From sequence record MN850651.1: a DNA stretch of 64,000 bases; one strand, 5' to 3'. Of the stretch, positions 36,396-40,457 are shown in pieces. Under the pieces are notes generated by a model, which was not told the origin of the DNA, did no database searches, and saw only the letters and a list, made by a program, of their open reading frames with translations. The first letter of the stretch is position 1, and each line of letters starts with the position of its first letter. The position numbers and the translations under genes were made by a program. This DNA is from Escherichia phage moskry.

Positions 36396-36426
36396 CTATA
36401 ATAACATAACCTGTACCAAAGTAAAC
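36396..36426 (-). promoter_or_regulatory. Early-type promoter upstream of the 121-aa hypothetical gene
   Basis: GTTTAC-N17-TATTATAG on minus strand. Confidence 0.55.
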
Positions 36427-36430
36427 TGTT

Positions 36431-36799
36431 TTATGCAACTTTAATCCAATTGTCTAAATTTAAAACACCTTTGGCTTTCATTTTTTCGATCAGGTTATCT
36501 GCTGTAATGCGTCCATTTTGATACCATGTAACATCTTCAGAGTAACCAGTTTCTTCGTCAACATATGTTTCTGAACGAATTTTACCGGTAATAATAGTTT
36601 TTAATTCGTATGTGTCGCCTGTGAAAAAGTTTGCTAACACAATTTTCCAAGAGAAATCATCAGAAGGACCTTCAGGGGTCATACAACCTACGAACTCAAA
36701 TTGCTCTTTGTATAACATCCACTGGAATTCTTTAATTTCGATAGCTTTATAACCGTCATGGTCTTTACATTTGATGTATGAGTTCAGATTGATTTTCAT
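36431..36799 (-). CDS. Hypothetical early protein, 122 aa
   Basis: ORF with its own early-type promoter (about 36838-36869). Confidence 0.75.
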   Translation of the reverse strand: MKINLNSYIKCKDHDGYKAIEIKEFQWMLYKEQFEFVGCMTPEGPSDDFSWKIVLANFFTGDTYELKTIITGKIRSETYVDEETGYSEDVTWYQNGRITADNLIEKMKAKGVLNLDNWIKVA

Positions 36800-36837: not shown

Positions 36838-36869
36838 TCTATAGTAACACCATCCTACAGGATAGTAAA
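36838..36869 (-). promoter_or_regulatory. Early-type promoter upstream of the 122-aa hypothetical gene
   Basis: GTTTAC-N18-TACTATAG on minus strand. Confidence 0.6.
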
Positions 36870-36907
36870 CATCTTTTTTAAACTTTTTCTGCCCTAAACG
36901 CACAAAA

Positions 36908-36925
36908 GGGAGACCGAAGTCTCCC
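36908..36925 (-). terminator. Intrinsic terminator after the 59-aa basic ORF
   Basis: Minus sense GGGAGAC-UUCG-GUCUCCC followed by UUUUGUG. Confidence 0.75.
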
Positions 36926-36930
36926 TAAAA

Positions 36931-37110
36931 TTATGCAACAACCTTTCCAAAACGAGAAGCATCATCTCGAAGAACTGCACGTGCTCTGCGCATGATCTTC
37001 TCAACTGTTTGATTAATACGAGAGTTCGACCCACGCTTGTATCCAGCGCGTTTAGAGGTACCATCAACTTTCTTTTCAACTGCTTTCTTTGCTTTAGCTT
37101 GTTTTGCCAT
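36931..37110 (-). CDS. Small highly basic protein, 59 aa (not in ORF track)
   Basis: Translated by hand: MAKQAKAKKAVEKKVDGTSKRAGYKRGSNSRINQTVEKIMRRARAVLRDDASRFGKVVA; followed by GGGAGAC-UUCG-GUCUCCC terminator hairpin; overlapping track ORFs 36894..37079(-) and 37009..37242(+) judged spurious; coordinates +/-2 nt. Confidence 0.6.
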   Translation of the reverse strand: MAKQAKAKKAVEKKVDGTSKRAGYKRGSNSRINQTVEKIMRRARAVLRDDASRFGKVVA

Positions 37111-37406
37111 TATAAATTCTCTTTAAATGAAAATGCAGGACTTATTGACATTGCCTGCGCAAGCCCTCAAGGGGAACATAGGTTTTGGATATTTAACGAC
37201 AGGATAACCATAAACCTCGTCATCATACCAACCACGACTTAGACAGATAACCTTTTTCTGACGCGTGATAGTATAAAATACATTCAAGAGGTACACCGTA
37301 AAACTGCCGGGGTCTTAAAACTATAATGATTCGCAAATCATTAATCAGACAGTTCGACGGCTCCTCGATTTTCTAGCCGCACTTAAGGTAGCGAATCACC
37401 TAAAAC

Positions 37407-37655
37407 TTATTTAAGGGTGATAACAAAATGACGTACTGCTTTACGAGCTGCAGAAGCCAAAGGCTTAGCATATTTCAGTTCATCTTTTGCTTCCAGTTCA
37501 GAAGCCAAAGCTGCCTGTACCGGGTTCAGATGTTTGAAATATCGCAGGATTTCAAGAGCTTCGGCTTCAACATCAATAGATGCGCCATAGTTTTCGTGGC
37601 CGTTATTCCATGCGTTTCGTTGCAGTTCAAGAGCGTGTTGTAATTGTTTAATCAT
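37407..37655 (-). CDS. rIII: rIII lysis inhibition accessory protein
   Basis: 82 aa, same length as T4 RIII; MIKQLQHALELQRNAWNNGHENYGASIDVEAEALEILRYFKHL. Confidence 0.95.
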   Translation of the reverse strand: MIKQLQHALELQRNAWNNGHENYGASIDVEAEALEILRYFKHLNPVQAALASELEAKDELKYAKPLASAARKAVRHFVITLK

Positions 37656-37771
37656 TTTAAATTCTCAATTCGAGATAATATTTAGTAGCCACGTTCGTCT
37701 GAATTTCACTTCCTTTCGACAAGTCTCTCAGTTGTAGGCTACCGCTTAGAAGAGTGTTCTCTTCATATAGT

Positions 37772-37779
37772 TATTTATA
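37772..37779 (-). promoter_or_regulatory. Late promoter (TATAAATA on minus strand) between 31 and rIII
   Basis: Plus strand TATTTATA immediately downstream of gene 31 stop. Confidence 0.5.
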
Positions 37780-38112
37780 TCACTTATAAAGACACGGAAT
37801 AGCTTTATAGTGGCATGTTACGAATTTCTGTTTAATTTCTTTAGGATGTTTAAGTCCCAAAGCCACAAATGGATGTGGAACATTTCGAATTTGTCCAACT
37901 GGTAGTGGAGTCAAATCACCGACTTCAACAAAACCTTTAGGAACATCAGGACCTACAGAATGAACTACACATAGTTCAGGAACTTCACCTTGAACACGTT
38001 TACCAATCACAAGTCCTGATTCGGTAACTTCTTCATCACCTGCTTGAGCGGGTTCAGAAACCAGAATAACATATTCACCAACAGCACGAATTGGGAGTTG
38101 TACTTCAGACAT
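37780..38112 (-). CDS. 31: Co-chaperonin gp31 (GroES analogue for capsid folding)
   Basis: 110 aa; [29 protein letters not shown] matches T4 gp31 (111 aa). Confidence 0.95.
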
Positions 38113-40425: not shown

Positions 40426-40457
40426 TTATAGTATCACAACTCTACCATGTTGTAAAC
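40426..40457 (-). promoter_or_regulatory. Early-type promoter upstream of the 78-aa cd.x-like gene
   Basis: GTTTAC-N18-TACTATAA on minus strand. Confidence 0.55.

Follow-up and report, generated by a model that had tools for sequence, protein, structure and literature searches.

The minus strand of Escherichia phage moskry carries, at positions 36931..37110 of the 64,000-nucleotide stretch analysed here (sequence record MN850651.1), an open reading frame (ORF) that is T4 gene 30.9. The whole 64-kb stretch is referred to as the window; coordinates are positions in it, and the feature lies on the minus strand throughout. The ORF runs from ATG to TAA over 59 codons plus the stop, reads ATG GCA AAA CAA ... 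GTT GCA TAA, and agrees exactly with the translation proposed in the initial annotation. As that annotation also stated, a length just short of 60 amino acids had kept the ORF off the ORF track, which displays instead two overlapping ORFs of 61 and 77 amino acids, both with a TTG start. The description of the ORF as unlisted did not hold in the sense of a missed gene: 30.9 (synonym 31.-2) is already known, is annotated as a coding sequence in AV110 (WPK33888), ATK47, T4 (NP_049823, 130364-130540), JS98, and other relatives, and was hidden only by a display cutoff. The ATK47 record carries the note '30.9 ... T4 gene synonym 31.-2' for the ORF. Gene 30.9 has figured in the T4 map since the 1990s. 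That a 60-amino-acid cutoff could hide it recalls how many real genes of T4-type genomes are shorter than this. A length of 59 codons is not significant by itself, as the DNA of the window is AT-rich and contains many ORFs of 30-77 amino acids; the coding signal, conservation, and covarying terminator of 30.9 are far beyond chance.

Codon usage and substitution pattern identify 30.9 as a genuine protein-coding gene. On a log-odds codon score trained on 48 long ORFs of the window, the codon-usage check that had been suggested, 30.9 reaches +0.54 bits per codon, within the range of real 59-codon windows (0.44 +/- 0.18) and above that of off-frame windows (-0.23 +/- 0.22), just 0.12% of which score as high. 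The two overlapping ORFs score -0.36 and -0.35 bits per codon, like non-coding sequence, and neither has a PHROG match, in keeping with the earlier suspicion that they are spurious. Among 35 distinct coding sequences from 47 loci, with variable sites counted as extra nucleotide states per codon position, codon positions 1, 2, and 3 of 30.9 have 49, 39, and 99 variable sites, a twofold third-position excess, and the pairwise ratio of nonsynonymous to synonymous substitution rates (dN/dS) is 0.15-0.67, below 1 in all pairs tested. The start, ATG-GCx-AAA (MAK...), is kept among relatives, and upstream ATGs fall out of frame in other phages.

These results bear on the alternative that the ORF is untranslated, its conservation reflecting an RNA or DNA element, or that one of the overlapping ORFs is the real gene. 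The protein has not been seen in the T4 proteome, the synonymous sites of codons 19-31 are unusually frozen, and the adjoining spacer is rich in RNA structure, all of which would fit such an element. Yet 30.9 scores on codon usage as real genes do, the two alternative ORFs score below zero and lack family matches, the substitution pattern is that of a coding sequence, the Shine-Dalgarno (SD) sequence and start codon are conserved, and the amino acid sequence is retained down to about 55-65% identity despite many synonymous changes. Taken together, codon usage, substitution pattern, distribution, and the conserved start make conservation purely at the RNA level very unlikely.

In codons 19-31 (37018-37056, minus strand), minority codons occur in ∼5% of sequences, compared with ∼24% in the invariant codons of the C-terminal helix, and the Arg26 codon is CGT in 35/35 sequences. 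A further constraint at the nucleotide level may lie behind these frozen synonymous sites; one candidate is a local hairpin, CGCGCU...AGCGUG, spotted by eye.

The window phage is a T4-type Mosigvirus of the RB69/AV110-like kind; 751 bases around 30.9 are 99.9% identical to the DNA of Escherichia phage AV110 (Mosigvirus), and 790 phage records match this segment. The protein matches phrog_1427 (E = 2.4e-31), with residues 1-57 aligned to profile positions 11-66 of 75, and clusters bearing the name gp30.9 occur among its homologues. The homologue search that had been proposed returned, by tblastn, 1006 phage records with the frame conserved in relatives and with hosts in Escherichia, Klebsiella, Serratia, Yersinia, Salmonella, and Pseudomonas; the homologues form 65 protein clusters. 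A profile search of 1.84 billion representatives recovered 18 proteins (50% identity representatives), all small except one, a repetitive 617-amino-acid match judged spurious. By these sequence comparisons, 30.9 is conserved throughout Tevenvirinae and can still be recognised in T4-like phages farther removed. The T4 orthologue, gp30.9 (NP_049823; UniProt P17310), is ∼96% identical over residues 1-56 and has the same site between rIII and 30.8, the same start, and the same terminator architecture; it differs in its last four residues, KQKA against KVVA in the window, and in one extra residue in the lysine-rich tail. UniProt P17310 ('uncharacterized 11.1 kDa protein in Gp30-rIII intergenic region') is an old 97-amino-acid form with an upstream extension whose frame is not conserved.

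Public records for this gene are uneven. The 59-amino-acid 30.9 protein is misnamed '1,4-alpha-glucan branching enzyme' in several (e.g. AV116, vB_EcoM_P8, PMBT63), and its N-terminus is over-extended to 63-102 amino acids in others, including the 97-amino-acid UniProt T4 entry. Nearby, a 31.1 homologue carries the label 'tail fibers protein'.

The 6.6-kDa product is as rich in lysine and arginine as the initial annotation had claimed, with 10 K and 8 R against 3 D and 2 E (five acidic residues), a net charge of +13, and an isoelectric point of 11.35. Its charge per residue, +0.22, lies more than five standard deviations above the mean of the 64 window ORFs of at least 100 amino acids (-0.012 +/- 0.042, maximum 0.10). 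In the alignment, an N-terminal Lys/Ala-rich tail, variable in sequence and conserved in composition, leads into an almost invariant core, S19-K-R-A-G/K-Y-K-R-x-S/T-N-x-R31 (S19-K-R-A-G-Y-K-R-x-S-N-x-R31 in the window), which is followed by a predicted amphipathic helix, ...I-N-Q-x-x-E/D-K-I/L-x-x-R-A-R-x-V-L-R..., and an end in F-G-K. The invariant columns are S19, K20, R21, A22, Y24, K25, R26, S28, N29, R42, V46, F54, and G55. The 35 unique coding sequences retain the core, with S28 replaced by T in three; the signature of the helix after it is ...R-A-R-x-V-L/I. Most of the distant representatives keep the core too, some of them varying at S19, K20, or A22, and distant homologues add H1-like KA/PK-rich tails such as ...PKKAKSRKPSATKAAKAAKKI and KPKAKKA. 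The window protein has one short AKAKKA stretch, and longer KA-rich tails are found only in some distant homologues. An AlphaFold2 model built with the alignment places helices at residues 2-15 and 30-54, with a predicted local distance difference test (pLDDT) score of 52-56 over the invariant segment and 82-87 over the helix after it.

The neighbourhood is that of T4. Genes 31, rIII, 30.9, and 30.8 follow one another on the minus strand of the window, and the order is identical in T4, AV110, ATK47, JS98, STP4-a, and KLB8. The gene 30.8 product matches Pfam Phage_30_8 (PF06019; E = 6.7e-44), and the genes for the gp31 co-chaperonin and dCMP deaminase lie farther upstream of 30.9. Synteny with rIII is retained even in the distant homologue L048, and on the distant contig L049 the 30.9 homologue stands directly after DNA ligase. 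The annotators of ATK47 mark an 'ori type 2 repeat' 10 nucleotides upstream of the 30.9 start. The coordinates of the features are collected in the table below.

Table. Features at and around gene 30.9 in the 64-kb window, with the evidence for each
Feature	Position	Strand	Basis
Gene 30.9 coding sequence	36931..37110	-	ORF translation, phrog_1427 match, codon score, annotation in relatives
Overlapping ORF, 61 amino acids	36894..37079	-	ORF track
Overlapping ORF, 77 amino acids	37009..37242	+	ORF track
SD-like AAGAG	37119..37123	-	Sequence; GAG ends 8 nucleotides before the 30.9 ATG; in the 3' arm of the SD hairpin
SD hairpin, AUUUUC/GAGAAU	37116-37134	-	Minimum free energy and centroid folds pair UUUUC with GAGAA
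P3	37135-37158	-	
P2	37164-37174	-	
P1 hairpin element	37181-37227	-	Covariation, covariance model
Variable segment of spacer	37228-37279	-	
Block A	37280-37371	-	By eye; 92 nucleotides nearly identical in Mosigvirus, T4, and JS98
M0 hairpin	37373-37401	-	By eye; loop UACCUUAAGU
rIII-30.9 spacer, 296 nucleotides, read as structured leader of 30.9	37111..37406	-	Block conservation, P1 covariation
rIII, 82 amino acids, preceding cistron	37407..37655	-	phrog_1457, E = 3.8e-43; annotated rIII in relatives
Hairpin of the rIII leader	37681-37745	-	Covariation, covariance model
Late-promoter consensus TATAAATA	37772-37779	-	Directly after gene 31, before rIII
Gene 31	37780-38112	-	Gene order
Predicted intrinsic terminator	36896..36926	-	7 G-C-rich pairs (8 with flanking A-U), UUCG loop, U-run; fold and covariation
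Predicted early promoter of 30.8, TTTACT-N17-TACTAT = TTTACTATCCTGTAGGATGGTGTTACTAT	36841..36869	-	Exact consensus match
Gene 30.8	36431-36799	-	Pfam match

The 30.9 stop codon is followed by five nucleotides (TTTTA), GGGAGAC (36919-36925), TTCG (36915-36918), GTCTCCC (36908-36914), and TTTTGTGCGTTT, so that the GGGAGAC-UUCG-GUCUCCC terminator claimed for this position is present. With its tail, UUUUGUGCGUUU, the element has the G+C-rich hairpin and U-run of a Rho-independent terminator, and a 56-nucleotide segment containing it folds at -20 kcal/mol (z = -3.4; 0/200 shuffles as stable). A hairpin stands directly after the 30.9 stop in every Tevenvirinae locus examined, with the stem variants GGGAGAC/GUCUCCC, GGGACUCC/GGAGUCCC, GGGAACC/GGUUCCC, and GGGGCUCC/GGAGCCCC, and the consensus fold has compensatory double changes at 4/8 pairs. 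The terminator is also annotated in ATK47, as an ARNold prediction by its annotators. Sequence, fold, and compensatory changes together predict a genuine intrinsic terminator. A simple promoter/terminator scanner did not list it, but direct folding shows that the hairpin is real; the miss is probably due to an extra A-U pair that lengthens the stem and leaves four T residues in the 8-nucleotide tail window.

Promoters were sought with the T4-type early-promoter consensus TTTACW-N17-TAYWAT, taken from PMC4122927 and counted across the window with N16-18 spacing. There are 11 matches, compared with 0.86 expected. Of these, 10/11 are minus-strand sites, among them those that precede 30.8 and 30.7 (36398-36425), and in most relatives the terminator is followed by GTTTAC. 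The spacer between rIII and 30.9 has no match to the strict early consensus; on the minus strand, the nearest match upstream is at 40428-40456. The P1 loop TATGGT and other hexamers of the spacer were considered by eye as sigma-70, MotA, or late promoters and set aside, as neither spacing nor sequence is conserved. In T4, rIII is reported to be driven by early, middle, and late promoters (PMC9409239), and in the window a late-promoter consensus precedes rIII. From the promoter and terminator consensus, 30.9 looks like the last cistron of one or more units that include rIII, with its own terminator and no promoter of its own. Of the earlier proposal of an 'own terminator', the terminator itself thus stands and is conserved; to read it as the mark of a transcription unit of 30.9 alone is not supported. 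The in vivo expression of rIII and 30.9 was reportedly addressed by Driukas and Nivinskas in 2003 (cited in PMC9409239). On this arrangement, 30.9 would be carried at the end of transcripts from upstream and translated from its own SD and AUG at the end of a long structured spacer, the final hairpin of which includes the SD.

That spacer consists of blocks that are near-identical between Mosigvirus, T4, and JS98, in which T4 single-nucleotide indels destroy any reading frame. A peptide encoded in the spacer (ORF 37123..37296, or the 97-amino-acid extension of T4) was accordingly rejected: the T4 indels break the frame yet keep the hairpin, a stop comes early in locus L017, L033 lacks an ATG, and the codon score is 0.03. 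The best-defined element, P1, has the layout UAUGAUG-stem-GUUUAUGGUUAUC-stem-CGUUAAAUAUCCAAAACC, with a conserved loop (GUUUAUGGUUAUC) and 3' tail (CGUUAAAUAUCCAAAACC). The two variable pairs at its base form in 21/21 distinct sequences, with three pair types each (UA/AU/GC and CG/GC/UA), and 84% of cells are paired compared with 65% in shuffles and 26-51% for slid partners. With a covariance model of P1, each of 22/22 Tevenvirinae loci yields exactly one copy, in every case located in the rIII-30.9 spacer, and three distant loci yield none; the 64-kb window gives a single significant match. The place of the SD hairpin is taken in relatives by CUCC...GGAAG or CCUC...GAGG, as judged by eye.

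A second hairpin, which precedes rIII in the window, T4, and JS98, has a conserved internal loop, UACAAC / A(A/C)GAACGUG, and is followed in turn by a hairpin that includes an SD. Klebsiella-type phages and other T4-like relatives have the UACAAC/AMGAACGUG motif instead in a longer hairpin of the 30.9 leader, ∼25 nucleotides before the 30.9 start (e.g. L007 1071-1135). Four outer pairs of the hairpin covary, with two to four pair types and no breaks, and its covariance model gives 85.8 bits in the rIII leader, the single significant match in the window. A scan of the collection with the pattern TACAAC-N(10-40)-AMGAACGTG hit 120+ unrelated contigs and was discarded as too unspecific. A third module, of ∼135 nucleotides, is absent from the window; many T4-like phages carry it between rIII and 30.9, on one side of P1 or the other according to lineage (for example L004 925-1059, L007 914-1048, and L047 1183-1318). 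Of the 39 pairs predicted for the module, 18 show compensatory changes, and a highly conserved unpaired stretch reads CCCGGAMCC...GCUAACGGUGUGCAACAGAUAAGAG; its G-U pairs indicate that the sense strand is the structured one. Its T-arm-like reverse complement raised the idea of a tRNA, and a tRNA search found none.

Two further variations were seen by eye. Block A contains a hairpin, UAAUGAUU-UGCG-AAUCAUUA (37324-37343, minus strand), with a compensatory variant in L034, and the M0 stem varies among phages as CGC/GCG, CAC/GUG, AGC/GCU, and UGC/GCA.

An Rfam search of the window region and 20 related loci gave no match for the leader modules, and sub-threshold noise at the terminator only. The overall folding energy of the 30.9 leader is unremarkable (z = +0.98), so the evidence for the modules is covariation and not stability. 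The unusually long spacer before 30.9 is thus a series of covarying hairpin modules without an Rfam match, shuffled between the rIII and 30.9 leaders across genera. The identification of 30.9 is correct but ordinary; these conserved, unannotated leader RNA modules are the most interesting thing seen here and deserve a separate look.

What gp30.9 does has to be read from its sequence, its context, and published data on T4. The literature searched holds no functional statement on 30.9, and the review PMC3014915 mentions neither 30.9 nor rIII. In T4, the 30.9 transcript is classed as early (PMC9697503, Table S2), and knock-down of 30.9 by CRISPRi-ART (dCas13d) left fitness unaffected (score 0.04, p = 0.26, classed 'Not Fit'), compared with a score of 4.1 for gene 31 (PMC11879866, supplementary file 15). 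Among the small early proteins of Tevenvirinae labelled 'hypothetical', the product nonetheless ranks with the better conserved: its 13-residue basic motif is almost invariant, although there is no laboratory phenotype.

The charge of +13, the K/A tail, the disordered, glycine-interrupted basic stretch, and the amphipathic helix make gp30.9 look like a binder of polyanions, and it is reasonable to infer, as the initial annotation did from its composition, that it binds nucleic acid, probably RNA. The explanation that we judge slightly better than even for the data as a whole is that 30.9 is a conserved gene, the last cistron after rIII, for a small basic polyanion binder that favours RNA. Docking would occur through the basic segment SKRAGYKRxSNxR, which may order itself on the nucleic acid, and the C-terminal amphipathic helix could provide self-association or a second contact. 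RNA is preferred over DNA as the target because no DNA-binding fold was detected, because 30.9 is early and non-essential, because it is syntenic, even in the distant homologue L048, with rIII, whose product binds ribosomal protein S1 (PMC9409239), and because it is embedded in a stretch rich in RNA structure. As T4 can do without 30.9 under laboratory conditions, the product most likely has no core function and instead adjusts RNA or translation, of the host or of the phage, or offsets some condition specific to the host.

The same basic character could serve DNA. A histone-like or nucleoid-directed gp30.9 that coats or bends the host nucleoid or phage DNA early in infection would be in line with the AKAKKA-type N-terminus, the H1/Hlp-like PKKAK/KAAKAAKK tails of distant homologues, the extreme positive charge, the early class of the T4 transcript, and a location in a region of DNA-metabolism genes, directly after DNA ligase in one distant contig. 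However, neither HU/IHF nor any other DNA-binding domain was found in 30.9 with Pfam, NCBIfam, or Foldseek, and helix-turn-helix domains were likewise not detected; the invariant segment is glycine-rich and predicted to be non-helical, and the gene is dispensable in the laboratory. Nothing computational separates DNA from RNA binding, and we regard a DNA-directed role as unlikely, though a serious contender.

The partner could also be a protein. The segment SKRAGYKRxSNxR may be a short linear motif that, as a docking peptide or pseudo-substrate, inhibits or diverts an acidic protein of the host, such as a defence or stress factor present only in some hosts. Linear motifs typically lie in disordered regions, and disorder is predicted for the segment that carries the most conserved residues. 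Like many counter-defence genes of phages, 30.9 is early and can be dispensed with on laboratory E. coli, and its family is confined to T4-like phages. Yet no family match to known anti-defence proteins was found, and the variable, compositionally conserved K/A tails favour non-specific polyanion binding over a single protein site, so that a protein-directed motif is a minority view, held with little confidence.

Several points weigh against the RNA-favoured polyanion binder. Nucleic-acid binding is read from the sequence and a model of modest confidence (mean pLDDT 67), and a small protein this basic could just as well have an acidic protein as its partner. The window protein has no Pfam match at E <= 0.1 and no significant NCBIfam match, and Foldseek comparison of its model with the PDB returned nothing. 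Distant homologues gave sub-threshold noise against Pfam and NCBIfam, with no ribosomal-protein or small basic RNA-binding family. The best PDB sequence match of the 30.9 profile is SlmA (E = 0.14), where the helix at residues 30-54 (36949-37023, minus strand), RINQTVEKIMRRARAVLRDDASRFG, resembles SlmA residues 122-146 with 12/25 identical positions, and one distant homologue, P0074, matches TetR_C_12 below the cut-off (E = 0.014). As a 59-amino-acid protein cannot form a TetR C-terminal domain, this resemblance is probably chance or one helix's worth of likeness. The evidence for co-transcription with rIII is the promoter and terminator consensus. In the T4 proteome, gp30.9 was not detected (Class_P = NA; PMC9697503, Table S2), which is probably a weak negative, as a Lys/Arg-rich 58-mer would be expected to yield few usable tryptic peptides.

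A more specific extension of the RNA-binding explanation would make gp30.9 the protein partner or regulator of the covarying hairpin modules, namely P1, the UACAAC/AMGAACGUG hairpin, and the 135-nucleotide module; we consider this a long shot. Such a circuit could take the form of autogenous translational control of 30.9, and perhaps of rIII, through contact between the Arg/Lys-rich peptide and a hairpin, or of a small ribonucleoprotein that acts on host translation together with S1-binding RIII. If protein and RNA modules are indeed functionally linked, the phage family that has been studied best would gain a new element of post-transcriptional control.

Three kinds of known system invite comparison. 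The terminator of 30.9 and the adjoining promoter of 30.8 form, by consensus, a PeSL-like cassette of stem-loop and early promoter. As in the PeSL cassettes of T4-type phages (Arbiol et al. 2010, PMC2839356; Comeau et al. 2014, PMC4122927), a TTTACT-N17-TACTAT promoter, an exact match to the PST/T4-type consensus, lies within ∼40 nucleotides of the hairpin; unlike them, the 30.9 cassette bounds a widely conserved gene and not a variable ORFan.

For the protein, the nearest analogues are the arginine-rich-motif RNA-binding peptides, such as lambda N, P22 N, and HIV Tat and Rev, and the basic extensions of ribosomal proteins. The predicted features of gp30.9 recall these: it is very small, with a short invariant basic segment that would be unstructured alone and stands beside a helix, and its gene lies in a neighbourhood rich in conserved RNA hairpins. 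It differs in lacking sequence similarity or a ribosomal-protein family match, and its motif is Lys/Arg-mixed and glycine-interrupted.

For the leader, the comparison is with RegA, gp32, and gp43 of T4, autogenously regulated small nucleic-acid-binding proteins, and with the leaders of ribosomal-protein genes. The 30.9 leader is set apart from these by a folding energy that is not exceptional, and its binding by gp30.9 is hypothetical. By analogy, however, it would share with them a structured, conserved leader that ends in an SD-containing hairpin before the gene of a basic protein.

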